From NCBI GenBank assembly GCA_030704615.1, contig CM060733.1:48236001-48300000 (forward strand): DNA of 64,000 bases. The letters run 5' to 3'. The position numbers and the translations under genes were made by a program. The DNA comes from Takakia lepidozioides (Eukaryota; Plantae; Bryophyta). This document shows, piece after piece, positions 1 to 62,997 of this stretch (positions are counted from its first letter, which is position 1; every line of letters starts with the position of its first letter). Under the pieces are notes generated by a model, which saw only the letters and a program-made list of their open reading frames with translations, was not told the DNA's origin and did not search any database.

Positions 1-860
1 GTACGACGTACCTATATGTGGAGAGGATGAGACTGCACAATGCTCTCCCTACGCCATGTGCTCAGTTGGTGCAGCAGTACCCTGATTTGTTGCTGGTGTC
101 TGCAGTTCGTGGATATCAGCATGCCTTGCCAGGAGACATTTCGTTGTTGGGGAGGATTTGAGCGGGTTTGGTTCCATTGATTGGTAGTGGCAGTTGGCCC
201 TGCCAAGGGCATTCCCTCAGTCGGCATGGCAATGGATTGCAGACTCGAGGTCGGTCTATTTTGGGAGATGGTCGGGTTTGCGCCACTTACAGTTTCATCA
301 AGCTGTATCTCTCCAGCATACATCTTGGAGAATGTGCCACTGATGGGCAATTCTCGGGCCAGGGATGCTAGTGTGGCACCAGTTTGGTCGTGGCTTGGGT
401 CAAGCAATGTTGCTGGATGCAGCTATAGTGGGTCTAGGCTCATCGTCCACGGCTATGGTGGACTAACTTGATGCCACCCGCACTGCTCAGGCGTGCATTT
501 GATTGTGTCGCGGCCAGCACACCTCACATTGGATAGCATTTTGGACACAGGGAGGCAGTCTCAGCATGTGAGACACGATGACCGTTCGCCTTGCAGTGGG
601 CAACAATGGGTCAACCACACGCACTACCTACACTGCTCAGCTTCCCAAGATCGCATGCTTTCCGGGAATGTGGAGCTTGGCCTCTGTGGGATGCTCAGTT
701 GCAGCAGTTAGTGGAGCCTAATGCCGACGAGCGAGACTGCTATGGGTTTTTCGCATTAGGACCACGCGGTGTCTTCTCTTTCTGAGGCATTACGTCGTCA
801 GGTTTTGGGGGCAAGCAATGGATATAAATTGCTTGACCTGGATTTATCAGCTTGGCTATG
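1..860 (+). pseudogene. DNMT3-like cytosine-5 DNA methyltransferase domain within pol of copy 1 (frameshifted)
   Basis: GWPCQGH (~192-211), YILENVP (~319-339), [10 protein letters not shown] (441-470) and RQVLGQAMD (~797-823); colinear with the domain at 55100-56045. Confidence 0.88.
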
Positions 861-1460
861 CTGAGCAACGTAGAGTGCGGAGTGCACTTCCCTTGACGGT
901 CTCTCTGCCTACCGAGATGGTACAATCAAGTGAGTGGGGGCGATCCAGTGAAGACCACGGGTGTAACATCCATGGCACACGTGGGAGGTGCTCGAGTTCA
1001 GAGGGAGTTTGCAGCCAAGCGTTGTGATGGATGAGGTTGGGATTCTTCTCGGGTTGAGAGGTCCTCAAGGATGAGATGATGGGGCAGGATGAGGCCTTGT
1101 CATTGACTAAGCAGGCAGGGAGTACTGCTCATGAGGTGGCGGCATAGCACCACGGGACGCGTCCTCTACCTCTAAGTCTATACTGGACTTAAGGTGCAGT
1201 TACGGAGGACAATTGGAGACCTGACTTGGACCCATTGTCACTGGAGGAGAAGAGACAACGTATCGCGGTTCATGAGGGCTACAGGAATTGCTTTGCCTTC
1301 ACTTTGAAGGTTTGGTGGGAGCATTGAAGGTCAGGAGATTCATATGAGTTGGCCACAAACACGCCAATCTTTCGGAGACCCTATAGATACAGTGACATGG
1401 AGAGGGCTTTGATTTAGATGAGGACTCAAGATCTCTGGGAGGCTGGTTTGGTGGAGCTCT

Positions 1461-4270
1461 TTGGTGGAGAGTAATGCTTCAGCCACGGTGATGCCAGCCA
1501 AGAAGGATGTCTATGGCAATTGGACGGAGAGACGTATGTGCGGTGATTATCGGCCTGTAATCGTCAGACCAAGTCCGATACGTATGCCATGCCCACACCG
1601 AAGGAGATCTTTGATGCCATTGGGCATGCCAAGGTCTTTAGCACTTTGGACTTGCGGTCCGGATATCACCAGTTGCCGATCAAGAAGGCGGACAAGCAGA
1701 AGACGACATTCTGGGGGATCAATGAGCACGGGAATGATTGCTTATATCAATGGCGATTCTTACCATTCGGGCTTAAGAACGCTCCTGCAGAGTTCCAGAG
1801 AGTCATGGACAGGATTCTAGCAGGGGTAGACTTTGCTCGTGCACATAGATGACATCATCATCTTTAGTGCTACGGTGGAGGAGCACGAGAGACACCTTCA
1901 GGTGGTGTTTGAGCGCTTGAGAGCGCACGGATTGAAATTACATCCGGGAAGTGCAAGTTCTTCCACAACCAGATTGAGTATCTGGGCCACATGATATATC
2001 CTGGAGGATTGGGGGTGCACCAGACTAAGGTAGAGGCCATCGCACAGATTCCATGTCCCACGGATGTGAGCCGAGTTCGAACTTTCATGGGGTTGGCAAA
2101 CTCCTATAGACGGTTTGTCAAGGGATTTAGTGTTATTGCAAAGGCTCTAACCAAGCTGACGAAGGTAGACCAGGAGTGGCAGTGGGAAGATGAGCAAGAG
2201 CGAGCTTTTCAGGAGCTCAAGGCGAGGTTGACCTCGGCGCTGATCTTGAGACGACCTATCAGGGGGCGTCCCTTTCAGGTGCATACAGATTGGAGCATGC
2301 TGGGGCTTGGAGCGGTTCTCACACATGTGATGAGGGAAGAGAGTTCGTAGTGGCTTATGCTAGCCGCTCGAACAACGCTGCAGAGTCTAAGTATAGCTCA
2401 TATGAGGGGGAGTGCTTAGCTGCAGTGTGGGCCGTGACACTCTTCAGGTGCTATCTATACGGCAATCTCTTCACCCTTATCATGGATCACCAGCAACTCA
2501 AGTGGTTGATGGAGTCAGACAAGCTTACGGGGAAGCTTGCACGGTGGGCACTTATACTCCAGGAGTATGACTTTCAGGTTGTGCATCGACCGGGTTTGGT
2601 CAATAGGGATGCGGATGGATTCAGTTGCAATCCATGCACGAGCCAGTAAGATGACACTGGAGCTCGGTGGCATGGTGAGACGGACGAGGAGATGGTGCCG
2701 GGATGGCATGCATCTGTCTTTTTGTGTATCTTGGCATCGGAAGGTCAGATTGGACCTACAACAGGGATGACTGTAGATGGAGTGTCTGAGGACCCTAAGG
2801 CTAGTGATGAGCCAGGCGGTGCCAGAGATATACATGAGGATTCAGTTGTGTTGGACTACCTCCGCACTGGAGACACGGCAGCTAGTGTGACTGCCAAGGA
2901 GAGGGATCGGATCCTGCAACGAGCCAAAAGGTTCAAGTGGGAGGGGATACACCTGCTTCGAGTGTGGGAGGATGGTCGGGTGAGGATCATGCCTCACCCA
3001 ACACAGCGTGCACGGTTAGTGCGGCATGCCCATGAGGAGTTGGGGCATTTTGGAGTGCGACGCACTCATAGTTTACTGCAGGGGCAGTATTGGGCGTGGT
3101 ATGCACACAGAGGTGCAACAGTTTGTGGCTAGGTGCATGGTGTGTGACAGGGTGCGTGCTTCATTCAACGCCCCTACACCACAGTTGCATCCATTACCCA
3201 TCATGGGATTGGGCTACAGGTGGAGTCTTGACTTCGCAGGGCTGTTGCCACTGACGATGCGCCACCACAGATATGTATTGATGATGGTGGAACACTTCTC
3301 CAAGTGGATTGAGTTGGTTCCATTGCCTGACAAGGCTAGTGAGGGGGCTGCGTATGCATTCCTGGATCGTGTGCTTAGCCGATTTGGTGCTCCAATTGAG
3401 GTACTCACGGACCAAGGGAGAGAGTTCTTGGGGGAGTTTCAGGCTTTGTATGATAAAGCCTTGATAGACCAGCGTACCACTTCTCGGGATCATCCTGAGA
3501 CCGATGGCTTGGCAGAGAGAGTGGTGCAGACGGTGAAGAGGGGTTTACACAAATATGGCTTGCAAAAGGGACACCTAGGAGATTGGGATCTTCAGCTACC
3601 TTGGTTAGCCATGGGCTACAGGTTCAGCAAGCAAGCATCACTTGCCTCCTTCTCACCATATTTCCTTCTCTTTGGCCGAGAGCCGGATTTGCATGCATCT
3701 ATTCGCAGGGAGGCTGCAGTAGTCCTCAACCTTGCTGATCCGGATGTGTGGACACAAGCATGTGCCCAGCGGGCAGAGTTGTTCAAGAGAGTCATGCCTA
3801 TGGCTTTTGAGAATCTTGCTATTGCCCAACACCGAGACACATTGAGGTATGTCACTATACGTGGAGGGGGATATCGGCCAGGTGTTCGGCGTTTCCACCC
3901 TGGGGACTATGTGTATCTGCAGCAGACAGCGCCTACAACCTTGGATGTCACAGCAGAACGTGTGATTCTAAGGGTCAGGGAGGTGTTACCTTCAGGAGTG
4001 TTGATTCTGGAGGGTCGAGATGGCATGGTATGGAAGGACCATGTGCGTAATTGTGCGCCATGTCACCTTCCACATGTGGATGTGAGGATAGATCCCAACC
4101 TTGCAGTGGTACCTGCAGGATTGCGTTGCATGCTATGTGGGCATGTTCGTGGTGCCGCCACTATGCTGGTGTGTGATCGATGCTCAAGAGGTTGATACAT
4201 GAGATGCTTGACACCACCTCTTGAGAGGGTTCCTGATAGAGATTGGTTATGTCCACACTGCTTGGGATAG
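1461..4270 (+). pseudogene. RT-RNase H-integrase-PHD region of pol, copy 1, with stops and frameshifts
   Basis: ORFs 1461-1820, 1589-1852, 1991-2350, 2290-2649, 2692-3132 and 3026-4195 carry consecutive Ty3 pol motifs; PHD CMLC..VCDRC..(W>stop)..C..WLCPHC ends at TAG 4268-4270. Confidence 0.93.
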
Positions 4271-4530
4271 TGGTAGTGGATATGACTAGTGGCAGCTCAC
4301 AAAACATGGGAGGCCAAGCTCATAGGAGTCAATACCCAAGATCTCAGGCTCAAGTTCACAGGTTGCAAGACGGCGACTAACGATGGGGCAACTCTTGTAC
4401 CCGGCCTCTTGATCTATCGAGTTTGAGTGTAGTAGGGACAGTGGTGGAGGATTTAATGAGGCTATGGCCACTATCACATCTTGTGGCTACCTGGACTTAG
4501 AGGAACCTAAGCGCCAGCTAGGGGGACGAT

Positions 4531-5430
4531 TGTGATGGACTAGTGGCTACACTAGTGGTGGCTAGTGGCAGCCTAGTGGTGGACTAGTGGCTGCACTAGT
4601 GGTGGCTAGTGGCAGCCTAGTGGTTGGACTAGTGGCTGCACTAGTGGTGGCTAGTGGCAGCCTAGTGGTGGACTAGTGGCTGCACTAGTGGTGACTAGTG
4701 GTTGTTTAGTGGCAGCCTAGTGGTGCACTAGTGGTGCACTAGTGATAGACCCTTGTTTGGTGTGCACATATGTTGTGTGGTTTTGGACAGCGATGTAGTT
4801 GTGTAGCGATATGTATGCGCACAACAGCTGTCAAGTTATTTTACCACTGGTGTGAAGTTAGCTAGGAAATAGCTAGCTTTTATATATTGACATTTGGGAT
4901 TGATCCAAGTATCAATCCAGGGGCCAATACATGTTTCAGCACCTGACGTTGTTATCTTCACGGCAGATCGCGGTGGGCTCATCTTTCTCGAGTTGAGCCT
5001 CACCACGTCTAGCTATGGCGCCGTAGTGTGGATTCCCCATGGCGTAGGATGCACTTGGCTCAACTTAATATATAAGTGATGTTTTCATGTGCAAGTGTGT
5101 GAGTTTGAGAGAGCTTGTATACTTGTATCATTCCTTTCCTTATCATTGTGATGGACTAATGGTAGCCTAGTGATGGACTAGTGGCTGCACTAGTGGTGGC
5201 TAGTAGCAGCCTAGTGGTTGGACTAGTGGCTGCACTAGTGGTGGCTAGTGGCAGCCTAGTGGTGGACTAGTGGCTGCATTAGTGGTGACTAGTGGTTGCA
5301 CTAGTGGTGACTAGTGGTTGTCTAGTGGCAGCCTAGTGGTGCACTAGTGATAGACTAGTGTTTGGTGTGCACATATGTTGTGTGGTTTGGACAGCGATGT
5401 AGTTGTGTAGCGATATGTATGCGCACGACA
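4531..5430 (+). repeat. Composite 3' terminus A1(4531-4826)-GC-B(4829-5145)-T-A2(5147-5430)
   Basis: A1 and A2 are direct repeats (TGTGATGGAC...GCAC(A/G)ACA) containing CTAGTGG arrays; B (317 bp, TGTCAAG...CTTATCA) matches 52047-52363 and 61651-61967. Confidence 0.93.
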
Positions 5431-19908: not shown

Positions 19909-22900
19909 AGTGTTGCGGTTGAGGAGCATGAGAGACACCTTCAGGTGGTTTTTTAGCGCTTGAGAGCGCACGGGTTGAAACTGCACCCCGGAAAGTGCAA
20001 GTTCTTCCATAATCAGATTGAGTATCTGGGCCACATGATATACCCTGGAGGATTGGGTGTTCAACAAACAAAGATGGAGGCCATTGCATGCATTCCACGC
20101 CCCATGGATGTGAGCAAAGTTCGTGTTTTCATGGGATTGGCAAACTACTATCGACAGTTTGTCAAGGGATTTAGTAGCATTGCAAAGGTTCTTACCAAGT
20201 TGACCAAGGTGGGTCAGGAGTGGCAATGGGAGGAGGAGCAGGAGAAAGTTTTTGAGGAACTCAAGGCTCGATTGACTTTTACACCTATTCTAAGGCGGCC
20301 TATTCGGGGGCGGTATTTCCAGCTACATACGGATTGGAGTATGCTGGGGATTGGAACAGTGCTCACACAGGTGGATGATAAGGGAAGAGAGTTCGTAGTG
20401 GTATATGATAGCCGCTCGAACAATGATGCCGAGGCGAAGTATAATTCCTATGAAGGGGAATGTCTAGCTGTAGTATGGGCAGTGGCACATTTTAGATGCT
20501 ACCTCTATGGCAATCTCTTCACCCTTGTCACGGATCACCAACCATTGAAGTGGTTGATGGAGTCAGACAAGCTTACATGGAAGCTTGCACGGTGGGCACT
20601 TATGCTTCAAGAGTACGACTTCCAAGTGGTGCATCGAGCCGGAATAGTCAACCGGGATGCGGATGGATTGAGTCGCAATCCATGCACAAGTGAGCTTGAT
20701 GATACAGGAGCTCGTTGGCATGGTGAGACGGACGAGGAGATGGTGCCAGGATAGCACGCATCTGCCTTTTTTATGCATTCTAGCAATGGGAGCTCAAGCT
20801 CGTCCATCCCATGTGATTGGTCATAGAGATAGTGTGTATGCCGATCAAGAGATCAGTAAGGAGCTTGGTGATGCTCAGGATGTACATGAAGATGCAGCAG
20901 TGTTGGCCTACCTTCGTACTGGAGAGACAGCAGCCAGTGTGACTACTAAGGAGAGAGATCGGATCCTACAACGAGCCAAGAGGTTCAAGTGGGAGGGGAC
21001 TCACCTACTCCGAGTATGGGAGGATGGACGAGTGAGGATTGTGCCTCATCCAACACAGCGAGCGCGATTGGTACGCCATGCCCATGAGGAGTTGGGACAT
21101 TTCGGGGTGCGACGCACTCATAGTTTGCTACAAGGACAGTATTGGTGGCGGGGCATGCACACGGATGTGCAACAGTTAGTGGCAAGGCGCATGGTGTGTG
21201 ATAGAGTGCGGGCTTCTTTCAACGCCCCTACTCCACAATTGCATCATTTACCCATTATGGGTTTAGGCTATCGTTGGAGTCTTGACTTCGCAGGCCCATT
21301 GCCACTGACGATTTGCCATAACAAGTATGTGCTGGTGATGGTAGAACATTTCTCCAAATGGATTGAACTGGTGGCATTGCCTGACAAGGCAAGTGAGGGG
21401 GCTACGTATGCATTCTTAGATCGAGTGCTTAGCCAATTTGGTGCTCCAGCCGAGGTACTCACGGACCAGGGGAGATCATCCCGAGGCTGATGGCTTGGCC
21501 GAGAGGGTTGTGCAAACAGTCAAACGAGGCTTGCCCAAGTATGGCTTGCAGAAGGGACACTTGGGAGATTGGGACCTTCAGCTACATTGGTTGGCCATGG
21601 GCTACAGGTTTAACAAGCAAGCATCACTTGCCTCGTTCTCGCCTTATTTCCTTCTCTTTGGCCGAGAGCCAAATTTGTCTGCATCTATTCGTAGGGAGAC
21701 TACAACAGTCCTCAACCTTGATGATCCGGATGTGTGGACACAAGCATATGCCCAGCGGGCAGAGTTGTTCAAGAGAGTCATGCCTATGGCTTTTGAGAAC
21801 CTTGCTATTGCCCAACACCGAAACACATTGCGGTACGCCACTATACGTGGAGGGGGATATCGGCCAGGTGTTCGGCATTTCCATCCTGGGGACTATGTGT
21901 ATCTGCAGCAGACAACGCCTACAACCTTGGATGTCACAGCAGGTCGTGTGATTCTAAGGGTCCGGGAGATGTTGCCTTCAGGAGTGTTGATTCTGGAGGG
22001 TCGAGATGGCATGGTATGGAAGGACCATGTGCGCAATTGTGCACCATGTCACCTTCTACATGTGGATGGGAGGATAGATCCCAACCTTGCAGTGGTACCT
22101 GTAGGGTTGCGTTGCATGCTGGTGGTGCCGCGACCATGTTGGTGTGTGACAAATGGAGCGACCGCCAAGGTGGCGGTCGCTTCTACGAGGTCTTCCCTGC
22201 GCATGGAGCGAGGAATGAGGCGGGGGGGGGGCATATAAGCTCCGAGTCATTCTTCATTCACTTCCATTACTAGCAGTTTTTGTTTTTACAAAATGCAGCG
22301 ACCGCCATTTCTGGCGATCATTGTAATGGTTATTTTTTAAAATGCAGCAACCACCACACATGGGATGCTTGACACCGCCACTTGAGGAGGTTTCTAGTGG
22401 AGAATGGTTGTGTCCACGATGCCTTGGATAGAGGTAGTGGGGCATGACAGTGGTGAGGTTGACAAGTGATCCAAGGTCTAGCTAACGGGAGTTCAATGCC
22501 ATGGACACCCAATTGGAGCCATGGATTGCAGGAAGACGAGTAACGATGGGGCTACTTTTGTACCCGACCTCTTGATCTATTGCCTTCAGATACTGGGACT
22601 TGGGCGATTGATGACCAAGCGATGATCTTATTGGGATAGATATTTGTCAATTATCCGGTGTTAGAGGGACCTAATCACCAGCTAGGGGGGCGATTGTGGT
22701 ATAGTTTTCTAGGATTGTATGCTTAGATTGCGTGGTGGACAACGATGTATGTTGTGGCACGATGCTTAGGTGCACGACAGCTGTCATGGTTTTAGTCATG
22801 GTTATCTAGAATTACCTACTTCTAGTTAATTAGGATATTTTAGATATTTATATTTATATTTTGTGTGTTGGGACTTCATTTGGTCTCACATGCCAAGTGA

Positions 22901-23219
22901 GGTATCGAGCCTCACTTGGGACATGGGGATAGGTTTTCCCCTTGTGAGGATGGAGGAGGTTCATCTTCTTGTAGTTGAGCCTCCATGAGCCTCTCTCACC
23001 TCCATAGCTCTAGGTATTGAGAGAGAGTGTGGTGAGGGCTTTGTAGGGTGGATTCCCTTAGCAAGGGTGCCTTTGGCTTAACTTAGTTTATGTGATTGAG
23101 TGGATTCATGAATGGAGGGTTTCTATTATGTTCACTTCCATTATCATTGTGGTATAGCTTTCTAGGATTGCGTGGTGGATAACGATGTATGTTGTGGCAC
23201 GATGCTTAGGTGCACAACA
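19909..23219 (+). mobile_element. 5'-truncated Ty3/Gypsy copy 2, a divergent subfamily of the same family
   Basis: RT C-terminus, RNase H, integrase (internal deletion at ~21470) and PHD interrupted by a ~200-bp insert (22152-22355); PPT GCTAGGGGGGCGAT; terminus A1(22695-22779)-GC-B(22782-23146)-T-A2(23148-23219). Confidence 0.93.
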
Positions 23220-27000: not shown

Positions 27001-28125
27001 TTACTTCGTTGTCGTCATCTCCGATGTTGATGAAGATGCTCCGGGTGTAGAGGACGTGCCTCCACCAGTACGAAGAGCTCGAGCCTGGGCTCGAGTGGTC
27101 AAAGAGGGACCCAGTGTTGTGTGGTCCACCCTTGCCATCATGCGTAGCGTTCTAGGCGAGTGCTGACTCTCTTCCACATTTGCCAGAGCCGGGTGTGTCG
27201 CTCTTACTACGGCAGCATGCAATTTTTCAATTAAATCCGATATGTTTGGAAGTGGCAAGGACACCCCTGGAATAGGGGCAACTTGGTCACGCCATGTGTT
27301 CTGCCACTACTTTTCCACACTCGTGATGACAGCCTTGAAATTGTCCAACACCTCCTCCTGCTGGGGGTCTCTGCGCAACTCTGGAAGAAATGGCCCATCA
27401 TCCCGACGAGGCACCCAGTACGTCTCATTCATATTCTCCCAACGGATGCTAGCGGCCTCCAATTCCCTCAGAAATAGGTCTCTCCCAATCGGTTTGCGAT
27501 TGTATGGGTCATTTTTCGCTGGCACACACGGATCCTCAGGCAGTCGGAAGAATCTTTGTCTGGTACAGCTCCAATGCCCTCCCAAGTTCCGGCAAAAAAA
27601 CTCCCTTTGGACTGGGTTCCGTATGCCTTTAGCACGCACGGTTATTTCCCAGTTGGATGTCACCCAAAAAGTCACCGGATCTTTAATCCTAGTGAACGTC
27701 TTCGCATCCAAGGCGTGCATCTCTCTTGGAGCATCCCATGTCATTGTCTCCCCCCAGTGCTGCCAATTTAAAAAATCGTAAGGCGATACATCCAATGGCA
27801 TGTTGTACCGGTTGTACTCGTATCCCGTGGGCATATTGTCTTGCAACCCAAACAATTCGTAGAAACGTCGATGGATTGGTCCACGGCAGTCAGGGCATTG
27901 GCTGGCTCGCATGGCTGCCGATATGAGACATGTGGGATGGAACAAATGGCCACATGAACTAAGCATATAGCCTCCATCCGGTCCATAAGGGTTTAGGCAC
28001 ATTGTGCACACCGTACCATCTGTTACCCATGACGCTGGATTGCTCTGTGGTATCCACGTCCGTTTATCCTCATTAATGTAGGATGACATCCTCGGCCTGG
28101 TGTCCCACTCCTCCTCTACTTCCAA
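27001..28125 (-). pseudogene. RING-H2 zinc-finger protein fragment (5' truncated)
   Basis: CTMC-x14-CGHLFHPTC-x10-CPDC in ORF 27307-28125; apparent frameshifted continuation at 27001-27264. Confidence 0.7.
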
Positions 28126-28989
28126 ATCCCAGTTTATGCTGTTATTGGTATCACAATCATGGACCTATCGTAGGAATTTTGTGACCCAAATAGCGAGTGA
28201 GTTTGGGGGCAATTGGAGTGAGGTGAGGTTGATGGAGATGATGGGCAAGAACCTCAAGGACAAGAGGTACCGTGCAAGAGAGGTGATCCGGAAAGCAATG
28301 AAGCTGGGGTTTACTCCCCACCCATCAATACATGGAATAACACCGGTATGTACTAACGTCCCTCAATTCACTTCTTGATTTGATTTTATGCACATTGTTT
28401 ATTTTTATTTTTAAGATACTCACTCATGGCAATTTATATGTCATGTGTAGCTAAAAAGCTTTGGGATGAAGCCCTCAGCGATAGAGTTGGCGTACAACAA
28501 GGACCATGGTTGGGGTAGGCTCATGGTTGATGGGTTCTCAACCAAGGAAGGTGAGACGGAGGATGAGGAGTCACAGGTTGACACTAGGGTAGTTGATCAA
28601 CAACTAGTACCAGCCCGCATCTTGGGCTCCTCATCGGATATGGAGGACGGTGATTGTTTGACTCTAGGGACAGCCAATTGATGCATGATGGTAGTACTAT
28701 GTCTGAGATCGATGAGAGTGAGCGATGAGAGGTCATCCCTTACACATGTACAAAACTTCATGTTTTTCTGATAAAAACTTTTGTATATTTGTTGTCCATT
28801 TTCAATACCACAACATTTGGGTGCATGCGATTGTGTACCTACAAACTGGACGAGTCTCCTTTGAGCTAAATTGGTGATTGTAGATTAGTGCATAAGACAC
28901 CTAAGAAGAACTCTCGGTGCATGGACCCAAAGTAGTGTAAAAAAAATGAATCAAACAAGTAAAATACGAAAAAATGACCCCTAACAATC

Positions 28990-42200: not shown

Positions 42201-42357
42201 AGGAGGACGAGAAGGAGAGATTCAGCCGACAGACAGGGCTGCCACTGAAGTTGGTGAACAACTGGTTCATCAACCAGCGGAAACGAAACTGGCACGGTAT
42301 TAATCATCATTTCGCGGCATCCTCTTCAGAACGAATCACAAAACAAAAGCTCAGCTG
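39247..42357 (+). CDS. Class II KNOX homeobox protein, copy 2. Exons 39247-39606, 39753-39833, 40082-40345, 40881-41001, 41310-41503, 41890-42021, 42203-~42357 (or read-through to 42547)
   Basis: KNOX1, KNOX2, ELK and homeodomain are all in frame with consistent phases; [13 protein letters not shown]; WPYP is changed to CPYP. Confidence 0.88.
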
Positions 42358-44857
42358 GTACGTGAGAGTACCCAATTTCTCTGATAGGAAACGGTTCTCG
42401 ACCTATATGTCTCTAAACTCTCGAAGGGCAATTCAAGTCATCACAGAAGTCACGATCGTCCACAAATACAGACGATCGTTCAGTCCAGAAACTCTTAACC
42501 ATATTTTCAAGACAGATTTCAAAACCAGTCCAGAAGCTTTTGACTAGCTATCCCTCCATATCTGCAAGTGTCAATGGATCAGGCCATCTCCATATCCGAC
42601 TGCACTATAGAATAGTGGCAGCCAAAGAGGCTAGCGGATATCAAGTTTGGGGCCTTAACTCTACATTTAAGTAGAAGTCTTGACCGTTCCAGACATTGGT
42701 TTGTTTGGGGCCCGCATTTTCCCCTTGTTCGGCTCAATGGCTCAGGCAGTTTGTAGGGAATTCAGATTCCTTGAAACATGAGCGAGAGAAGTTCTCTCGA
42801 GAGAGACTATTAAGTACTGCAAATTAAAGCATTTGTAAACTCAGATAGGCCAAACCAAGGATGGCATGATGTGATAACATTGCATGCATTGCTCCTGCAT
42901 GCATGCAGTAGCATTATCTGGATTCAAACAAGGGGCCGCATGGAACTATTAGAGAGGCTAGATAAGATAGGTAACACAACGAAGAGTCTAAAGCCTTATA
43001 GGTACTCCAAAGAATTTTTTCCCTCTTTTGGTCACGTTTGGGCTTACTAACTTCTGCTTCTGTTTTTTTTTGTAGTGAATTTCACGTGGAGTCTGGCCTC
43101 GGGTCTGCTGGGCCGAGTAACTTACAGCCCATGGCTACCGCTAATTGGCCGAGCTCCAGTTATAGTTACAATCTGCGCCCGGAAGAACAGTGGCCACAGG
43201 ACTTCAATTGATTAAATATCATCATAAGAGGTATACAGTTCGTCCAATCTTGACCAAGCATCTTAAGCAGACTCTATTACCAAGAAAGTTGCCAAGAAAG
43301 ACTTTGCCCGGTGACCAAACCAAATTCACTTCACTTTTGTAGTAACATTGATCATAACTGTTGTAGATTTCAGTGTAACTACACTAAGAGTACCTGCATG
43401 CCTAGAATATGACTCAGGCTAACTAAATAGGTTGGAAGTTCATGCATACCCCGGGATGGGAGGATTTACCTCTTCAGTGGACTTGAATAAGTACCGGGAC
43501 TAGATTTTGGACTTGCGCCCATTGTGACTAGTAACAGCATATCTCCATGGAGTTTGATCCTAGAATGAACATCAACAGATCACTCGTTATATTGGGCGAC
43601 ATGACCTAAATAGAATCACACTCTCCACTGCAGTGTTCCGCTAGTTGTCAGCTGTGAGCGGTAATCAAATGCTGAGCAAATGCTCGGGAAAGACATCTTT
43701 GAGGACCAGGTCAAATCTCTGGGACATGTGGTGTACCATAAAATACTCTCCGACCCTCAGGTACCTGTCCTCAACAGTCTGTCCCAAGTAGGTCCTTCCT
43801 GGGGTCCTTAGGAGGTCCTTCGCGCTCTAGTAGCTGCCAGTACTGGCGTAACTGCATCCTTCCTCACTGGGTGCAAAGTACCCTCTGATCCATGGACGAG
43901 AATCACCAATGTCCTCCCGCCGCAGTTCCCTGAAAAGGTTTTGCATCGCTGTCAATGCAGATCAAGGGACCGCTAGCCCCTCCTCAACCCCTGCAGGCCA
44001 GACCTTCACCTCAGTCATCAACATAATCTTTGAACGAACTAAGAAATCGAGAGAGACGAGGAGTGACTACACTACACTTGTGCTTCGCTTCTCTCTCTCT
44101 CTCTCCTTCGCTCTCTCTCACCCGGCTATACATCGGTTGCACACACGCCGGGTTGACGCCCATCCCTGCCCCCTTCAATTTGCCCGCTGTGCTACTACCG
44201 TAATTCCACCTTTGCATTTTGCACCCGTTCTTGAGCCTTTTTTTCTTTTCTTTTTTTTGTTTTTTTAAGAGGGAAACACCAGGAAGCGACAACTCACAAA
44301 TTTTTCTTTTTAAGAAAATAAAAAGAAAACAGGGGACAGAGGCCCTGACGGAGCCATTCTTTTTACAAAATATTGTTCACTGCTTGTTAAATATATGATT
44401 ATATATATTCTAATTGATCCCTGAAGCTGACAGTTAACCACCCTAAGAGGAACCCCCGGATAACAGCTTTCTTTTTAGTTGTGAGCTGTTCAGAAGGATT
44501 TAAATATGATAAAATTATAATGTCTTACAAATATCTTGAGAGTATCTTTTCATGTGACCTGTCCATTTCCGCGGCCCAATGATGGTAGGTAGTTTGTGCA
44601 ACCCAACTAAGCTACCGAAACAAACATACATTAAAAAAATCAAGTGCGGGAAGCCCAAAGCAAAACCTGCTGAGCACGTTTGTGGTCCCTCACCGCTGGC
44701 CCACCCTTTGCTTTTTACCTCCCCAAGACCTACCGAGGCGGGCTTGTCTGTGCCTGCCTGCGCCGGACTTGTGATGGGTATTGAGAGTGAGGGAAAGGAG
44801 GGTTTGTGAGCCTGTGGGCCAAGTTGGTGATGGCCAGTGATAGTTGGAGAAATGAGG

Positions 44858-49423: not shown

Positions 49424-52400
49424 ATGGCAATGTTCCACTCCGAGTTGAACGTCGACCTTTCCTTGGTCAGGCCCGATCCCATGGCTAATCAGAGCTACCA
49501 TGACATGGAACTGCGAAATTATGATTCTCCAGAAAATTTTGAAATTGTATGCATGAATGTACAAAATCCGCATACTACCAATAGTTCGACTAAAGGCAAG
49601 GAACAGCTGAGAGATGAGGATTACGGACATATGCTTGCAAGCGAGCAAGAACCCAACATTAACGAATTAATACCTCAGCAAAGTCAATTGTGTTATGATA
49701 CTCAAGGTGGTGCACTTGCCATCGAGAAGTGGTGTCCCATTTGTGGAGAAAGTGATTCAAAATGTATTTGCTGGATGCCTATGCATGCCGGTGAATCTAG
49801 CACTTCATCCTACTTGAATGATCAGAGCGATGCAGGTAGGTTGTCAACACCTTGTGACATATTACACCCTCCGCGGAATCGAGGTGAGTTTGGCAAACAT
49901 TCAACAGCTGCTTCCCCTTCCAACGTGTCTCGCAATGCTATGCCTAATCATCTCTCTCAAGATGGAGAAGGTAGAGGGCAGCAATTTATGGACTTTGATG
50001 AGAGAGTCCAGTATGATCCTATTAATCAGCAAAGAGTTGACCAGGTAAATGACTCTAATCCACTAGTCTAGAGAATGATTGTCTTTAGATCTACAATTCT
50101 CAACTGAACATCTCACCATTCAAGTCTAATTCCATGTCTCACCGTTAGGTCTCACCACTTGAGTCTTATCTAATGACTAATGAGATGGATCTGATCAAGT
50201 ATAACTACACAAAAGATAATTTTTCTCTTTTTCTTTTTTATTGCGAAACTAGAGGAGACTAAAAATGGTATCTGATTTTGAGATGGTGATTCTAGATAGT
50301 CTTTTTAAAGTGCATTAAGAAATAATACATGTACTATGGGCGCACATTGTCCGATTTAATTATGGAATTATATCCTTATGCACAACAACATTGCTTACTT
50401 TTGAAATGGATGCAAATTAACTTGTGTGTTCAGATATTCTTGACATGCACCTTTGGGTAATTATGCAGACTTATTGGGACACTATACAAAAGCAAAAAGC
50501 AGAATGGGAAACCGCAAAACAGAAAGCGATGATTGTGGCACATCCTTCATATCCAGAACTATTGGCGGCCCACGCTGCTTGCCTTTGTGTTGGTACATCT
50601 GTGGCTCAACTCCAAAATCTCGATGAGCAACTAATGCAGGCTCCGATTGTAAGCCAGAAATATTCAGTTTTGGACCTTGATCAGTTTGAGATCAGTCCAG
50701 ATGAGAAGGCGGAGCTTGATCTTTTCATGGTGAGAGACCACTGAACACAAGAAGATTGGATTAATCATTATAGTGCTATTGGTACATATATTAGAGTAAC
50801 CAAGTCTCCTCTTATTTGTATTGCCCAGGAAAAACAGACCAAACTTATGTTCACGATCTATTCCAAAGTTGTGCAAAGATTAATTTGACTTAGGCTCCTA
50901 TTTAGTCTAGACTCACTCTTATTAGTTTGAACATAATTGTCTAGGCACTTCATTTCAGATCCTTGTCTTTTGTTTTTGTCTTTAGATCCCGCAAATGGTA
51001 GGTTGATTTCTAAAGAACTGGCCTTTTTGGACATTGTACTAGGTCCAATACATTACGCTCCTTGTTGCCTTCAAGGAGCAGTTAGAGCAACATGTTTACA
51101 GCGATGTGACTCAAGCTATGGCATCCTGCTGGGATGTGGAGCAGGAACTTTACAAACTGACAGGTAACGTAAGGGTTTCTACATATCATTTATAATCATA
51201 TATATACTGCCCAAAATGAGAGCTCTAGAATACTTGGAAAACTTGGATGCTAGACCTTGGTGTGCTGTGTTAGTATTGCTAGAGGAAGTGACATATAAAA
51301 ATAGTGCGCCCCAACATAGAAAACTCTCCAGTATAGTAGAGGTGTATTTTCTCAAAAGTGCGTTAATCATGCACACTTAACCTAGCAAGTATAGATCCAT
51401 AGGGTACTAGTTCTAGTTAAACCGGGGTACCGAGGTACCTCCCGGAGCCATTGTCTGGTCTGAGTACAACCATCAGGGGTTATACCTGTAGGACCATTCT
51501 CAAAAGACACCTTTTAGAGGCAATTGATGCATGTTGGCCTATCCATACTAACCTGACACAAGGAATCATGAAAGACAATGGATAGATGTAGATGTCGTAT
51601 TAGTCAGATTAATTGCTAATGACTTGAGCTCCCATTTTGCTGTACCTCTGTAGGATATTAGATCCAACTGCGGAGTTGAATTGGAAGGGCCTATATAAGT
51701 TAGTAAAAAAATGTTATTTTGGGAAGTGTGTCGTGCGCATACATATCGCTACACAACTACATCGCTGTCCAAAATCACACAACACATGTGCACACCAAAC
51801 ACTAGTCTATCACTAGTCCACCACTAGTGCTCCACTAGGCTGCCACTAGACAATCACTAGTCACCACTAGTGCAACCACTAGTCCACCACTAGTCTGCTA
51901 CTAGCCACCACTAGTCTGCCACTAGCCACCACTAGTGCAGCCACTAGTCCAACCACTAGGCTGCTACTAGCCACCACTAGGCTGCCACTAGCCACCACTA
52001 GTGGCTGTCACTAGTCCATCACTAGGCTGCCACTAGTCCATCACAATGATAAGGAAATGAATGATACAAGCATACAAGTTCTCTCAAACTCACACACTTG
52101 CACATGAAAACATCACTCATATATTAAGTCGAGCCAAGTGCACCCCACGCCATGGGAAATCCATACTATGGCGCCATAGCTAGACGCAAAGAGGCTCAAC
52201 TCAAGAAAGATGAGCCCACCGCGATCTGCCGTGAAGATAACAACGTCAGGTGCCCAAACATGTATCGGCCCCTGGATTGACACTTGGGTCAATCCCAAAT
52301 GTCAATATATAAAAGCTAGCTATTTCCTAGCTAACTTCACACTAGTGGTAAAATAACTTGACAGCTGTCGTGCACATACATATCGCTACACAACTACATC

Positions 52401-55400
52401 GTTGTCCAAAATCACACAACACATGTGCACACCAAACACTAGTCTATCACTAGTCTACCACTAGTGCAACCACTAGTCCATCACTAGGCTGCCACTAGCC
52501 ACCACTAGTGCAGCCACTAGTCCAACCACTAGTCTGCCACTAGCCACCATTAGTGCAGCCACTAGTCCACCACTAGTCTGCCACTAGCCACCACTAGTGC
52601 AGCCTCTAGTCCAACCACTAGGCTGCCACTATCCACCACTAGTGGCAGCCACTAGTCCATCACTAGGCTGCCACTAGTCCATCACAATCGTCCCCCTAGC
52701 TGGCGCTTAGGTCCCTCCAAGTCCAGGTAGCCACAAGGTGATAGTGGCCATAGCCTCACTAAGTCCACCACTGTCCCTACTACACTCAAACTCAATAGAT
52801 CAAGAGGCCAGGTACAAGAGTTGCCCCATCGTTAGTCGCCGTCTTACAACCTGTGAACTTCAGCCTGAGATCTCGGGTATTGACTCCTATGAGCTTGGCC
52901 TCCCATGTCTTGTTAGCTGCCACTAATCATATCCACTGTCACTATCCCAAGCAGTATGGACATAACCAATCTTCATCAGGAACCCTCTCAAGAGGTGGTG
53001 TCAAGCATCCCATGTGCCAACCTCTTGAGCATCGATCACACACCAGCATAGTGGCGGCACCACGAGCATGCCCACATAGCATGCAACGCAACCCTGCAAA
53101 TACCACTGCAAGGGTGGGATCTATCCTCCCATCCACATGTGGAAGGTGACATGGCGCACAATTACGCACATGGTCCTTCCATACTATACCATCTCGACCC
53201 TCCAGAATCAACACTCCTGAAGGCAACACCTCCCTGACCCTTAGAATCACACGTCTTGCTGTGACATCCAAGGTCGTGGGCGCTATCTGCTTCACATACA
53301 CACAGTCCCCAGGGTGGAAATGCCGAACACCTGGCCGATATCATACCTCAATGTGTCTTGGTGTTGGGCAATAGCAAAATTCTCAAAAGCCATAAGCATG
53401 ACTCTCTTGAACAACTCTGCCCGATGGGCACATGCTTGTGTCCACACATCCGGATCATCAAGGTTGAGGACTACTGCAGACTCCGTGCGAATAGACGCAG
53501 ACAAATCTGGCTCTCGGCCAAAGAGAATGAAGTATGGTGAGAAGGAGGCAAGTGATGCTTGCTTGCTAAACCTGTAGCCCATGGCTAGCCAAGGTACCTG
53601 AAGAACCCAATCTCCTAGGTGTCCCTTTTGCAAGCCATACTTGCATAAACCCCTCTTTACCGTCTGCACCACTCTTTCTACCAAGCCATCGCCCTCAGGA
53701 TGATCCCGAAAAGTGGTACGGTGGTCTATCAAGGCTTTATCACACAAAGCCTGAAACTCCCCCAAGAACTCTCTCCATTGGTCCATGAGTACCTCAACTG
53801 GAGCACCGAATCGGCTACCTAGCACACGATCAAGAATGCATACGCAGCCCCCTCACTAGCCTTGTCAGGCAATGGAACCAACTCAATCCACTTGGAGAAG
53901 TGCTCCACCATCACTAATACATATCTGTGGTGACGCATCGTCAATGGCAACGGCCCTGCGAAGTCAAGACTCCACATGTAGCCCAATCCCATGATGGGTA
54001 AATGATGCAACTGTGGTGTAGGGGCGTTGAATGAAGCACACACCCTGTCACACACCATGCACCTAGCCACGAACTATTGCACCTCTGTGTGCATACCACG
54101 CCACAATACTGCCCCTGCAGTAAACTATGAGTGCGTCGCACTCCAAAATGCCCCACTCCTCATGGGCATGCCGCACTAACCGTGCACGCTTGTGTGTTGG
54201 GTGAGGCACGATCCTCACCCGACCATCCTCCCACACTCGAAGCAGGTGTATCCCCTCCCACTTGAACCTCTTGGCTCGTTGCAAGATTTGATCCCTGTCC
54301 TTGGCAATCACACTAGTGCCGTGTCTCAAGTGCGGAGGTAGTCCAATACAACCGAATCCTCATATATATCTCTGGCACCACCTGGCTCATCACTAGCCTT
54401 AGGGTCCTCAGACACTCCGTCTACAGTCATCCTGTTGTAGGTCCAACCTGACCTCCCGATGCCAAGATACACAAAAAGACAGATGCATGTCATTCCGGCA
54501 CCATCTCCTCGTCCGTCTCACCATGCCACCGAATTCCAATGTCATCCTGCTGGCTCGTGCATGGATTGCGACTCAATCCATCCGCATCCCTATTGACCAA
54601 ACCCGGTCGATGCACAACCTGAACATGTCTCTCATGCTCCTCCACCGTAGCATGAGAGGCAAAGCAATTCCTGTAAGCCTCAGGAACTGCCGTATACGTC
54701 GTCTCTCTCCTCTAGTGACAATGGGTCCAATGTCAGGCTCTCAATTGCCCTTCGTAACTGCAACCTTAAGTCCAGCAGACTTAGAGGTAGAGGACGCGTC
54801 CCGTGGTTGCTATGCCGCAACCTCTTGAGCAGTACTCCCTGCCTGATCAGTCTATGACAAGGCCTCATCCTGCCCCATCATCTCATCCTTGAGGACCTCC
54901 TCAACCCGAGAAGAATCCCCAACCTCATCCATCACAGCCGTCTTGGCTGCCAACTCCCTCTGAACCTCGAGCACCTCCCACGTGTGCCATGGATGTCTAC
55001 ACCCTGTGGTCCTCACCGGCTCGCCCCCACTCACTGTCTGTACCGTCTTGGTAGGCAGAGAGACCGTCAAGGGAAGTGCACTCCGCACTCTACGTTGCTC
55101 AGCCATAGCCAAGCTGATAATCCAAGTCAAGCAATTGAGATCCATCGATTGCCCCAACACCTGACGACGTGATGCCTTAGAAAGAAAAGGCACCGCCGTG
55201 GTCCCAGTGGAAAAACCCATAGCCCGCTCATCGCTCGTCGCATTAGGTTCCACTAACTGCTGCAACTGAGCATCCAACAGGAGGCCAGGTCCACTATCCC
55301 GGAAAGCATACGATCCTGGGAAGTTGAGAGTGTAGGTAGTGCTGCTCGTGGTTGATCCACCTTGTTGACCATTGCCAAAGAGAAACGGTCATCACGTCTC

Positions 55401-58400
55401 AAACGCTGAGACTGCCTCCCTGTGTCCAAAATGCTATCCACTGTGAGGTGTGCTAGCCGTTGCACCCCATCAAATGCACGCTTAAGCAGTGCGGGTAGCA
55501 TCAAGTTAGTCCACCATAACCGTGGACGATGAGCCCGAGACCCCACTGCAGCTGCATCCAGCAACACTGCTGATCCAAGCCACGACCGGACTTGATGCAC
55601 ACTGGCCATCACCCTGGCCCGAGAATCGCCCATCAGTGGCACATTCTCCAAGATGTATGCTGGAGATACAGCCTGATGAAGCTGTAAGTGGCGCAAAACC
55701 CGCACCATCTCCCAAAACAGTCCCGACCTCGAGTCTCGTAATCCATTGTTATGCCCGGTTGATAAATGCCCTTGGCAGGGCCAACCTGCCACTACCAGAT
55801 CAATGGAGCCAACCCTCTCCAAATCCTGCGCCCCCAGCAACAAAATGTCTGTTGGCAAGGCCTGCTGATACCCACGAACTGTAGACACCGGCAACAACTC
55901 AGGGTACTGCTGCACCAACTCAGCAACATGGCGTAGGGAGACGTGTCGTGCAATCTCATCTTTCTCTACATATAAGTACCGCCGTACTCGTACACCTACC
56001 TGTCCGGTGCTGATCCCGCCAAACAAGTCCAGAAGGCAAATGCCTTCATCCGGACACTGCCACACGATCGGTGTGGTGTCCAATGGAGACAACTGAGGTG
56101 GTCCTGGTGCAATCCCCGCACCATCCTCCTCTCCTGACGGTACAAAAGCCTCTACCCAGGCTTGTTGCACCCGTCGATCAGCAACCCGCTGCAAATCCTT
56201 GCTTGAGCCCCACAATGGAGTGTGAGCAACCATGGCAGGCAACTCCGCCATACCATACATGTCATCCTGCTCTTCCGGAGGTGACACATCTTCTGAATGA
56301 GTGTTGTCATCCAACAACTCTCCAGGCCAAGTCACTGCAGTTGTGAATGCTGCCAGTGTCGGCATCTTGCCTCGCTGGGCAACCGCAACTCCTTCTATGA
56401 ACGTCAGAGGGAGCTGCACACGCCGGGCCTCCCCTGACTGCCATCCAGGCCTATAGGAAGCTGACTCCTCCCAATCCAGGGTGAAGCCCATGGGGTACAA
56501 CACTGCCCCACCAACAAGGACATCGTACGAGACCGTGTCTGTCACAATGGCCTTGGCTCTCGTCACTGAGCCATCTGTAGGATGATCCGACTGTAATCTG
56601 ATAGCCAACTCACGCCATGTCATGCCCCAAACCTGCTCTGATCCTCCCAGCAATGTCTGTATCTAGAAAGGGCACGGCTCCATATCCGCCTCCGTGAGGC
56701 CCAAGCCTGCAATAGCAGCTCTGCCCAACATCAAATGGGCTGAGCTCCCAAGTCCAACAAGACTCGCAGTGGCCGGAACCTCTTGCCTGCCGGTCCACTC
56801 AAACAGAAAATATCATCCTGGTTGTCTAACATGACAACTCCAGGTGTCATCATGGTGCGCTCAATGGTTGACCTAGCTGGCAGCTCCATCAACCTGGCAG
56901 CTGCAGCTTGCCATGGCGCCGCCATGGCAGTCTTGACCCTCACATCTGAGGATCCCTCTGGCACTACACCTCCCACTATCTCCACAGAAGATGAAGTAAC
57001 CTCCCCACTCTCACATAGTGTAGCTGCCAGCCTGAAGACCTCAGCTGGTCTTACCCCCGGTATCACAATCATGGTAGCCGAGAACAATGGAGCCTGGCAC
57101 ACAGCTGTGGCCGCCCCCAGCAGCACACTAGCTGCCGTAGCCTTGGCAATACTAGGTAGTGGTGTTGCCCGTGTAGCTCTTCCCAATGGCATAGTAACCT
57201 CCGCCTCGGTAACAGTCGGGCGAGAACTAAGTGCCATGGAAGGCGTCGATATTGTCTCCGCCAATGTGAATGACTGAGGAAGCCTGGCCTGACGGCTTGC
57301 CTCCCCACGTTGTGGATCCATCCACCTCCGCACCTTGTGGCTCAGGAACTCGTGCTGCTCCTTGAGTCACTGCCGCAGCTGACTCCACTTGCACTAGTGG
57401 TAGTCCTGCCCCGCACATAGTGGTAGTGGTAGTGCTACCCAGCACTAGTGGTAGTGGTGCCCCACCCACAGTGGTAGTGGTAGTGGCACCCCTCACCAGT
57501 GGTAGTGGCGCCACCATAGTGGTAGTGGTAGTGCACCCCTCACTAGTGGTATTGTTGCCTCGCACATGAATCCCATTCATCCCATGTCTCCTCCCTCAGG
57601 AGCAGGAGGTGGACCACCATCCGGCTTTGGAGCCGGTACCACCTGCGGTGTGAGCTGTGGCCCATGGCAAGCGATGCTCTGCTCTACTGCTGAAGCCGGT
57701 TGGCCATGCCTTGGTCACCACCCTGACCTCCGCGTCCTTGGCCATGTTGAGCTTGCCCTTGGCCTAAATACACCTCGTGCCTGGCCACCTCGTCCTCTCT
57801 GGGTTGCTCCACCTCGCCCCCGGCCACGACTGTTCCCTTGAATGGGGCGCAACTTAGGATACAAACCATAGCAACTGGAGCTTCTCATGCCCGTTACTTG
57901 TCCACAATGCCCACACTGCAACTGTCTGCAGGCTGTAGCCGTAGGGGTGCCCAAACCGATTGCCCTCCCTCTGGGCAATCCTTCTTGACATGGGGTTCCC
58001 CCACATGTCCAGCCATACCACTCCGCCCCGTTGTTGCGCCAGCAAAATGAAGGGAAGACCCCTCCTAGCCATATGACAGGTCCTCTATGTCTTTCCCTGG
58101 GCTTACCTGAGCTCCACTTCTTCGCATATGAGTACGTTGAGGGCGGTGGTAAGTGGCCTGGCTTAGGAGTACCCCTACCTCGTTGTGCATCCTTAGCAAA
58201 TACCTACCATGACACTCGTTCCTCCACCATGTTGAAGCCCATCCGCTCTGCCAGCAAAAAACACATTTGCCTGCTAAGGTGGATTGGGCCACTTGTAGGA
58301 GAGTTGCCCCATCCCGCCACCCCCCCCCTCTTCTCCTCAGCCTCCTTGTCCAATTTCCGTACCAGAAGAACTGAGAACTGCCCAAGCCTCCGTAACCACT

Positions 58401-61400: not shown

Positions 61401-62997
61401 CTTCACACTAGAAGCCCAAACTTGGTTGTCATAGCGTTGAGCTATGCAACGCCGCTCTTCAACATAGGCTACCCGCTTCTCTATCCATGGCAAACCTGCA
61501 ACCTGTTCGCCTTTGCACTCTATCCGCTTTGGATAGGCTCATGCACGGATCCCTGCACTCTAGGCTGAACCGTTTTTCATGATCTGAAAACACAAGTGCT
61601 ACAACTAACTCGAACTTGGCACTCATAGACTTGAGCTGATCTTTCTCGAGTGATAAGGAAATGAATGATATAAGCATACAAGCTCTCTCAAACTCACACA
61701 CTTGCACATGAAAACATCACTCATATATTAAGTCGAGCCAAGTGCACCCCACGCCATGGGGAATCCACACTACGGCGCCATAGCTAGACGCGGAGAGGCT
61801 CAACTCGAGAAAGATGAGCCCACCGCGATCTGCCGTGAAGATAACAACGCCAGGTACCCAAACATGTATTGGCCCCTGGAATGACACTTGGGTCAATCCC
61901 AAATGTCAATATATAAAAACTAGCTATTTCCTAGCTAACTTCACACTAGTGGTAAAATAACTTGACAAGTGCACTATGCACATGAAACATAGGGAATGGT
62001 AGATCAACTTATCTGTGCAATATTATTGGTTAATGATACTTAGCTGCGCTTATTGCAACTACTCACATTTACTTTCCATTTGAAACAATGAGTTCAGGAA
62101 CATCCCCAGTTTATGGCATAGGAACAGCTACGATGTCTGATGACGATGATGAAGAGGAATACGAAGGTGATGGTAGTGCATATGACCCAAACTTGGACCC
62201 CCACCCAAACTTGGAATCCCCTGAATATGATGGGAGTTTGGGGCCAATTGTACCTACCGAGGAAGAGCGATGTACACTCCGCGAGTGCATACGAAAGGAG
62301 CTAAAATCGGAGCTCAAGCAGGCAAACATCATCAGGACTACCTTTAGTGATGATGTGTTCTTCCATATTTGTCTAAATTTTGCTAGAGCTTTAGGCCTGC
62401 ATGTTTTTAAACACTTGATGAAATTTGTAACTACATCTAGATCAGATGCATACATAAAGGAAGATACCCATCACTCCAAACGAAAATACTTATATACATT
62501 TCTTCCACAGAAGACGTGCCACTCGAGGTGATTGTAATACATGTTTCAGATATCTCAGGGATACCGGAGAATAATTGGGGATGTTCGAGAGGAGATATTG
62601 CGCAAGCGTCGGGCTGGGAAGTTGCCCCAAGGCACCACTGCAGTACTGAAGGCCTGGTGGTATGAGCACCGAGAATGGCCTTATCCAACGGTACACGCAC
62701 GTATCCAACAGCTAATGTTACACACCTTGTAACTTTGTATTGCATTTACAGTGTATGTTACCATCGTAGGTAGGTAGAACTTCAAAACGCTATGAAGAAG
62801 TTGACATTGTCTTGTTGAATTGCTTGATATCTTACTCTCTAATTATAGTGCGCGTACCTAAGCTGCAGGAGGAGCAGAAAGAAGAACTTGTCAAGGAGAC
62901 TGGACTGGAACACAAGCAAGTCAACAACTGGTTTATCAACCAGCGGAAACGCAATTGGGAGCGTTTGATGAATATGGACCCGCCATCCTCTTCATAA
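49424..62997 (+). CDS. Class II KNOX homeobox protein, copy 3 (most canonical). Exons 49424-50044, 50469-50729, 51043-51163, 62098-62321, 62559-62690, 62869-62997; a 10.2-kb retroelement lies in an intron
   Basis: [38 protein letters not shown]|[24 protein letters not shown]|[44 protein letters not shown]|[17 protein letters not shown]; a small exon near 50.2 kb cannot be excluded. Confidence 0.9.
51729..52686 (-). repeat. 3' terminus A1(52686-52366)-GC-B(52363-52047)-T-A2(52045-51729)
   Basis: Reverse complement of the 4531-5430 arrangement; PPT at 52687-52700. Confidence 0.93.
52942..54620 (-). pseudogene. Integrase plus C-terminal PHD finger of copy 3
   Basis: HAHEE.GH/CMVC zinc domain, [14 protein letters not shown]; [28 protein letters not shown]; frameshifted. 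Confidence 0.92.
55100..56045 (-). pseudogene. DNMT3-like cytosine-5 DNA methyltransferase domain in pol of copy 3
   Basis: Motif [71 protein letters not shown]; one frameshift near 55320. Confidence 0.92.
56500..56780 (-). pseudogene. Retropepsin-type aspartic protease
   Basis: [10 protein letters not shown] (D-S/T-G-A-like active site) and downstream YDVLVG; runs into the MTase ORF. Confidence 0.7.
57300..59340 (-). pseudogene. gag of copy 3 (degenerate)
   Basis: [18 protein letters not shown] capsid-like N-terminus, zinc knuckle [13 protein letters not shown] (~57960-58010), a second CGHC knuckle, and an RG-rich segment. Confidence 0.7.
61651..61967 (-). repeat. 5' terminal repeat of copy 3 (B unit only, 317 bp)
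   Basis: About 13 differences from 52047-52363; TG...CA ends; TATA-like TATATA; no A unit upstream, with the TSD directly adjacent. Confidence 0.93.

Follow-up and report, generated by a model that had tools for sequence, protein, structure and literature searches.

The 64,000-nucleotide stretch of Takakia lepidozioides DNA analyzed here (the window) contains three decayed copies of one kind of Ty3/Gypsy element, which were delimited by self-comparison. Copy 3 is complete and occupies positions 61967 to 51729 of the minus strand. It starts with TGTC, ends with GACA, and is bracketed by two CACT 4-mers that form a 4-bp target duplication (61968..61971 on the left and 51725..51728 on the right). 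Two repeated segments, A and B, are arranged around the internal part (int) in the order B-int-A-GC-B-A. The left repeat of copy 3, B1 (61651..61967), begins with TGTC and is adjoined by a primer binding site (61637..61650) of the self-priming type, without the TGG start of tRNA-type sites; a segment within B1 (61804..61817) pairs with this site and is the likely RNA 5' end and self-primer. The coding region comprises a broken aspartic protease region (56390..56937, located by tblastn of the intact relative P0177, in which Pfam identifies the domain), a broken C5 cytosine methyltransferase domain (55095..56047; PF00145, E value of 3e-10, and tblastn of P0177), a frameshifted DDE integrase region (53343..54156) upstream of which RT and most of RNase H are deleted, and a C-terminal PHD finger (52951..53085; PF00628, E value of 2e-10). 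On the right, a purine tract that serves as plus-strand primer (52689..52697) adjoins A1 (52366..52688), which starts AT-TGTG, ends GACA, and holds a short tandem array. A1 meets B2 (52047..52363, 96% identical to B1) at the palindrome GACA-GC-TGTC (52360..52369), a likely integrase attachment site whose central GC (52364-52365) is missing at the element ends. A2 (51729..52047) extends from the B/A junction, TATC-AT-TGTG, to the element-terminal GACA. Apart from the palindrome, which has no strand, all of these features lie on the minus strand.

Copies 1 and 2 are on the plus strand, and their left ends are absent from the window. Copy 1 (1..5430, DNMT-RT-RH-INT-PHD) is clipped by the window edge, with its left part outside, and is a close relative of copy 3 in the same subfamily; its repeats are A1 (4529-4826), GC (4827-4828), B2 (4829-5145), and A2 (5145-5430). 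Copy 2 (19909..23219, RH-INT, without the left part) represents a diverged subfamily with A1 at 22693-22779, GC at 22780-22781, B2 at 22782-23146, and A2 at 23146-23219. Its A and B bear little relation to their counterparts in copies 1 and 3, with short stretches in common with copy 3, and its right end and both junctions are as in the other two copies. The right ends read GACA in copy 1 (5430) and AACA in copy 2 (23219). All three copies are broken in their coding frames. RT is absent from copy 3, which compared with copy 1 has lost ∼1.3 kb at 54623-54657, covering RT and most of RNase H. The A segments of copies 1 and 3 owe their larger size to tandem repeats with many occurrences of the palindromic 6-mer ACTAGT (52432-52686, 51795-52044, 4532-4750, and 5148-5360) that are absent in copy 2.

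Other repeats share the window. Pieces of a different, dispersed repeat (8675-11671, 39506-42455, 50963-51167, and 61968-62700) flank copy 3 on both sides, which makes it likely that copy 3 inserted into an older element. A 2-kb repeat is present at 13960-15874 and 23498-25561 (87% alike) and starts with arrays of ∼51-base units, each with a small hairpin and T-rich spacers, which we take to resemble the subterminal arrays of a DNA transposon; its frames gave no Pfam match. Fragments at 25245-25799 (plus strand) and 27307-28164 (minus strand) have a weak protein kinase match and a RING finger.

Pfam searches of the window frames and of P0177 gave a Pol of Gypsy order, with protease, C5 methyltransferase, RT, RNase H, integrase, and PHD finger. 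The best solved-structure match of the integrase is Ty3 Gag-Pol (E value of 2e-12), and the catalytic D, D, and E are present in all 32 aligned proteins (the window integrase core, 3020-4192, and 31 relatives). The spacing between the second D and the E is 34 residues in 32 of 32, one fewer than in Ty3 and foamy virus by pairwise alignment, and could possibly be either a clade marker or an adaptation to junction cutting. The Pol order, the integrase, the TG...CA ends, the 4-bp duplication, and the combination of primer site and purine tract identify the element as a Ty3/Gypsy LTR retrotransposon. It does not have two identical terminal LTRs and is therefore a variant within the superfamily, a non-canonical member. 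A chromodomain, the mark of the chromovirus clades Chlamyvir and Tcn1 in REXdb, was found in none of the five relatives scanned, which have a PHD finger instead. A search recovered 282 related proteins at an E value of 1e−20; among the best 120 of these, the named relatives come from Coleochaete (73%), Haematococcus, Volvox, Pleodorina, and Tetrabaena. No relative was found in viral contigs. Seven contigs of the retrotransposon clade (L080 to L086) are placed inside bacterial or archaeal metagenome-assembled genomes and are likely misbinned. The clade is highly repeated in the organism from which the window comes.

A preliminary description of the window had drawn attention to the palindrome at the A/B junction and had equated the element ends with its two halves minus the central GC. 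Both observations hold: GACAGCTGTC is found at 52360-52369 and 22776-22785 and AACAGCTGTC at 4823-4832, and copy 3 starts with TGTC at 61967 and stops with GACA at 51729. From base composition, ∼0.05 exact matches to the palindrome are expected per window. Matches with at most one mismatch number 6 in the window against a shuffle mean of 2.04, and 6 was reached in 1 of 100 shuffles. This count is weak on its own, and two of the copies, 1 and 3, are closely related; what carries weight is the position of the palindrome rather than its number: it occupies the A/B junction in three of three copies, including copy 2 with its largely unrelated A and B.

The same description implied that the palindrome should be conserved across the family, and GACAGCTGTC is indeed kept across the clade. 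We retrieved 79 metagenome loci and 12 from genome collections, of which 37 and 7, respectively, were checked for repeats; these are short-read assemblies in which repeats may be collapsed. The 3.5 kb behind the integrase was scanned for the palindrome in 42 of the 91 loci, and an exact GACAGCTGTC follows the purine tract in 15 of the 42, at integrase identities of 38 to 71%. These 15 amount to about 11 independent cases, since L031 to L034 are one family and L080 and L081 are close. The other 27 loci comprise 2 with a single mismatch, 6 in which the junction is where it should be but has decayed, 10 that terminate at A, 2 whose A is interrupted, 4 that offer too little sequence, and 3 that are unclassified. 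In shuffled loci, a match with at most one mismatch arose in 0 to 30% of cases per locus. The palindrome is retained while the neighboring sequence diverges. A ranges from ∼55 bases in distant relatives to 320 in the window, and its first bases are unconserved; because A starts differ between subfamilies, the predicted cDNA ends would carry no conserved attachment motif. At L005 (2012-2013) and L039 (6551-6552), AT stands in place of the central GC, the decay that deamination of methylated C in both strands of CAGCTG would be expected to cause.

The ends of related insertions were compared in the same loci. An exact 4-bp duplication brackets five of the six elements with both ends visible (copy 3, L001, L013, L017, and L025), and three of four bases match in the sixth, L018. 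Right ends fall into two types among 20 distinct cases. In 11 (the three window copies, L004, L005, L017, L018, L023, L025, L039, and L081), A-GC-B-A is followed by flank. In the other nine, int-A is followed by flank; two of these are B-int-A elements with a duplication (L001 and L013), and the left ends of the other seven lie outside the visible sequence, so they could be of either form. Right flanks start with GC in 0 of the 20, which indicates targets unlike the junction core. Left ends are uniform: all nine distinct cases run from flank into B and then the primer site, and none is preceded by A-GC or carries B-A. The 10 kb upstream of L007 and L027 contains no copy of B. Terminal overlaps of 123 to 127 bases at L010 and L080 were considered as signs of circles and rejected, since collapsed repeats assemble likewise.

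Contigs assembled from four runs of one sample of the window's organism were also surveyed for positions at which contigs with unlike flanks break (24 of 639 rows listed). A break at 51729, the end of copy 3, was found in 4 of 4 runs with 26 to 37 contigs per run and an agreement of 0.37 to 0.38; a break at 52363, the TGTC edge of B2, involved 20 contigs with an agreement of 0.39 in the one run of four for which it is listed. Loose ends at the B/A boundary, among the 24 of 57 rows listed, are primer site, purine tract, or B-like variants with at most 7 contigs, and the listing includes no insertion or deletion at the B/A junction itself. Insertion thus employs the two palindrome halves as ends rather than those defined by the priming signals.

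These observations bear on whether the layout could be a rare rearrangement, by recombination, tandem insertion, or assembly collapse, of ordinary elements whose LTR is B-A, with the palindrome a captured old junction that has no current role. B-A alone does resemble a textbook TG...CA LTR, and repeats can be misjoined in short-read assemblies. Rearranged ordinary elements are nevertheless a highly improbable source: the same layout and duplications recur in several subfamilies with unrelated A and B, curated consensus entries for Chlamydomonas display the layout, the palindrome has outlasted its diverged surroundings, a class of conventional ends at the B/A boundary is absent among the rows listed, and a left end with B-A is precisely what the nine cases lack.

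The priming signals delimit a different unit from the one that is inserted. With the primer site directly behind B1 and the purine tract directly before A1, the conventional reverse-transcribed LTR is A-GC-B, as the preliminary description proposed. In copy 3, 13 of the 14 primer-site bases are complementary to a stretch of B that lies 167 bases short of its end (1 of 500 shuffles), and the self-priming stretch has a fold z of −4.35. L021 has the same pairing with a different sequence (0 of 500 shuffles), and L080 has 13 exact pairs. Of 10 elements tested for self-priming, the complementarity was strong in 2, moderate in 4 (12 to 27 of 500), and not above shuffles in 4; the weakly complementary elements are old, decayed copies. 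TATA-like motifs lie ∼25 to 30 bases upstream in L021, L024, and L025. The self-priming arrangement places R-U5 inside B, which again makes A-GC-B the reverse-transcribed repeat. Under standard reverse transcription, minus-strand synthesis from this primer site could not copy A2 from RNA, which implies that A2 is added at the DNA stage.

The B/A junction fits this origin. It was described at the outset as TATC-AT-TGTG, reusing the AT between purine tract and A1, and this is borne out in all three window copies, in each of which AT also follows the purine tract. In several unrelated subfamilies, the junction consists of the end set by the primer joined to the end set by the purine tract. At the join, the two ends have a single base in common in the window and in L025, two bases in the L017 subfamily, and as many as seven between L080 and L081. 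Within the window's subfamily the junction is invariant, and six copies of the L017 subfamily differ there by a few bases.

Split direct repeats suggest another way to obtain A2. The X-int-Y-X-Y order is the A1-B1-A2-B2 layout described for the tyrosine-recombinase retrotransposons PAT, Ngaro, and VIPER in the relevant part of PMC4157794, and a figure legend in a 2018 paper compares such a layout to DIRS (PMC5890265). Replication of the PAT/Ngaro type would have an RNA that spans B1 into A2 and is primed at its 3' end, so that the parent supplies the template for both A2 and the B/A junction, and a DDE integrase inserts the linear or circular product. The invariance of the B/A junction in the window's subfamily is in keeping with this. 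We regard it as unlikely, as the primer site and its complement sit exactly behind B1 and the purine tract exactly before A1, and priming behind B1 cannot copy A2 from RNA. Gypsy-7a, an element of Chlamydomonas reinhardtii, has in its library entry a TGG-type primer site behind the left repeat. Moreover, in unrelated subfamilies the B2/A2 junction falls at both priming boundaries, a coincidence not required of an inherited junction, and the junction differs by a few bases within the L017 subfamily. No tyrosine recombinase Pfam family was detected in the window frames or in five relatives scanned, with short broken frames covered partly.

If A2 were added during each replication cycle, it should resemble A1 of the same copy. 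Divergence is alike between A1/A2 and B1/B2 in all three elements compared: 20/173 versus 40/312 differences in L017, 22/173 versus 36/315 in L018, and 8/115 versus 30/338 in L025. A1 and A2 of L081 are identical. Within copy 1 and within copy 3, A1 and A2 have two private bases in common. No grouping of A segments by position emerged from a tree built on 19 of them; the A1 and A2 of one copy are sister tips in two of six copies (bootstrap values of 100 and 79), and the remainder is poorly resolved. A2 is thus as old as B2 and groups with its own A1, which suggests that it is likely remade in each cycle. Grouping by copy would also be expected from template switching or gene conversion, and inter-repeat template switching could likewise homogenize A1 and A2 under replication of the split-direct-repeat kind.

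Taken together, the sequences suggest that the cDNA ends are probably joined and that the integrase then cuts the upstream palindrome, with loss of GC, before insertion. The RNA would begin within B1, fold back on the primer site, and act as its own primer, as the complementarity indicates. Ordinary reverse transcription would then yield A-GC-B-int-A-GC-B (AB-int-AB), a cDNA whose boundaries are seen in the elements. Joining of its right end to its left end would produce the observed B/A junction, either by host end-joining or by a jump of RT over 1 to 7 bases of microhomology that displaces the old strand. To judge from the element ends and the missing GC, the integrase would cut after GACA on each strand, leaving a 3'-OH and a 2-base 5' overhang at each of the two ends, just as in processed retroviral ends. 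Strand transfer of these would account for the 4-bp duplications observed at unrelated targets. A is moved from the left end to the right with no change in length, and the product is therefore a circular permutation of the cDNA. Only B-int-A-B-A can be recopied, since no other form flanks the coding region with two B copies that both carry R. An alternative history serves equally well, in which the TG...CA LTR was originally B-A and a junction was captured around which the priming signals shifted.

Cutting of joined ends at an internal palindrome was the mechanism put forward in the preliminary description, and its sequence-testable steps (primer site, purine tract, junction, palindrome, and A2) stand, while equal use of the two palindromes is doubtful. 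A symmetric ligated circle has two equal sites and predicts B-A-B-int-A as often as B-int-A-B-A. This mirror form, which had been forecast, was seen at none of nine left ends; five of the nine belong to B-int-A-B copies, for which the chance is 1 in 32 if the two forms are equal. The two palindromes are probably cut unequally, which makes a freely symmetric circle doubtful on this small sample. Given that the mirror form was not seen, our guess is that a nicked ring made by RT, in which the upstream palindrome is marked, is somewhat likelier than a symmetric ligated circle. The RT jump from right to left end might displace the old plus strand and leave a 3' end at the upstream palindrome, which would explain the bias. 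Methylation of one palindrome by the element's own methyltransferase was considered as a source of the asymmetry and set aside, as relatives without the domain exist (P0186 and Gypsy-7a).

The description had further predicted B-int-A with a target duplication from a one-LTR circle. Such elements exist (L001 and L013) and are undiagnostic of that circle, because an inserted element whose A1 and A2 recombine ends up in this form too; one-LTR rings, a double cut, and such later recombination are all possible sources of B-int-A. Solo B-A was likewise rejected as a marker of circles because recombination also yields it. The frequency of B-int-A copies, with int-A at 9 of 20 right ends, would be explained if no intramolecular ring formed at all and integrase instead cut, at their palindromes, head-to-tail linear cDNA dimers or a released A piece that had been re-attached. 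The same junction and ends would result, and LTR-only library entries that start with TGTC (Gypsy-20 and -23) would be accounted for as well. This scheme requires two cDNAs in one particle or, for Gypsy-7a, a loose 8-bp piece; the private variants common to A1 and A2 of one copy fit a single template, and the missing mirror form is left equally unexplained. We consider dimers or re-attached pieces quite unlikely, and joining of the ends of one cDNA remains our preferred reading.

The layout itself is already in print as two figure-legend remarks, on KnitGypsy-Dnmt3 (PMC5890265) and Gypsy-7a (PMC9940879), and is implicit in a curated Chlamydomonas repeat library. Our literature searches turned up no account, for these elements, of the palindrome, the target duplication, or integration through joined ends, which the REM1 paper, Craig's 2021 thesis, book chapters, Repbase notes, or the 2018 supplement may describe. 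PMC8226300 has nothing relevant on the layout, and the accessible part of a 2026 bioRxiv paper on adenine methyltransferases has nothing on repeat layout. Software that recognizes LTR elements by a pair of identical terminal LTRs (as in PMC6317226) would overlook the clade or cut its members wrongly.

The two published elements differ in how far they can be compared with the window element. KnitGypsy-Dnmt3 of Klebsormidium nitens (de Mendoza et al. 2018, PMC5890265) is described in a figure legend as having a DIRS repeat structure with Gypsy domains; by that description it is alike in combining a Gypsy Pol that includes a cytosine methyltransferase with DIRS-like repeats, and the description gives no target duplication, palindrome, primer site, or mechanism. 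For Gypsy-7a_cRei of C. reinhardtii (Craig et al. 2023, PMC9940879), the relevant passage notes only that the left LTR lacks the last 8 bp. In Dataset S15 of that paper, the same 8 bases plus GC end the internal part, which makes A 8 bp long. Gypsy-7a thus appears to have the layout of the window element with an 8-bp A. By eye, its integrase has the D(34)E spacing of the window clade; it differs in its tRNA-type primer site, in a PHD finger before the integrase, and in being active, with 86 new insertions reported in one strain, CC-4532 (PMC9940879). The Gypsy-14a and Gypsy-22 entries of Dataset S15 start with TGTC, end with GACA, and have purine tract-A-GC-B inside, and Gypsy-14a has integrase-PHD motifs by eye as in the window element. 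The 10-mer occurs at least 11 times in the library (PMC9940879 supplement), 8 of them by eye ∼45 to 55 bases behind a run of G or C, and the internal entries of Gypsy-2a, -7a, -7b, -10a, -10b, and -11 end by eye with ACA-GC before an LTR that starts with TGT. Gypsy-21_cRei was considered as a mirror form (LTR followed by GC-TGTC) and rejected because by eye the entry is in reverse orientation; Gypsy-24 looks similar to it.

With a 10-base substrate and an active element in a model alga, the proposed route is directly testable. Two-LTR circles of retroviruses and LTR retrotransposons are treated as dead ends, and this clade appears to leave a permuted signature that is simply explained only by end-joining followed by an internal cut. 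Claims that such circles are integration precursors stayed unsubstantiated according to the relevant section of PMC1180852, which also describes a biochemical parallel: in vitro, the integrase of foamy virus cleaves the palindrome at which two LTRs abut and so generates processed ends. As reported there for foamy virus and avian retrovirus, the staggered cut falls after CA on both strands and two bases are lost, which is the geometry proposed here. In foamy virus, the palindrome is made by the joined cDNA ends, whereas that of the window element is part of the repeat's own sequence, at a distance from the joined ends; and while circle use by foamy virus in cells is unsubstantiated (PMC1180852), every insertion seen in the window clade uses the palindrome. 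Tf1 and Tj1 have the same self-priming arrangement as the window element, with a primer site complementary to a segment inside the 5' repeat (PMC4600332 and PMC6317226).

If the route proposed here is correct, it connects retrotransposons that use a DDE integrase with the circle-based routes taken by DIRS-type elements and insertion sequences. Tf1 and Tj1 themselves insert with ordinary symmetric LTRs. PAT, Ngaro, and VIPER integrate from a circle at targets that resemble the junction core and are not known to duplicate their target. Split direct repeats are common to them and the window element, which differs in its DDE integrase, 4-bp duplications, unrelated targets, primer site, and purine tract. 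Among insertion sequences, the DDE enzymes of IS3, IS21, and IS30 insert from abutted ends with loss of a spacer of 2 to 4 bases; these are DNA transposons, whose junction is made by the transposase and which use no reverse transcription.
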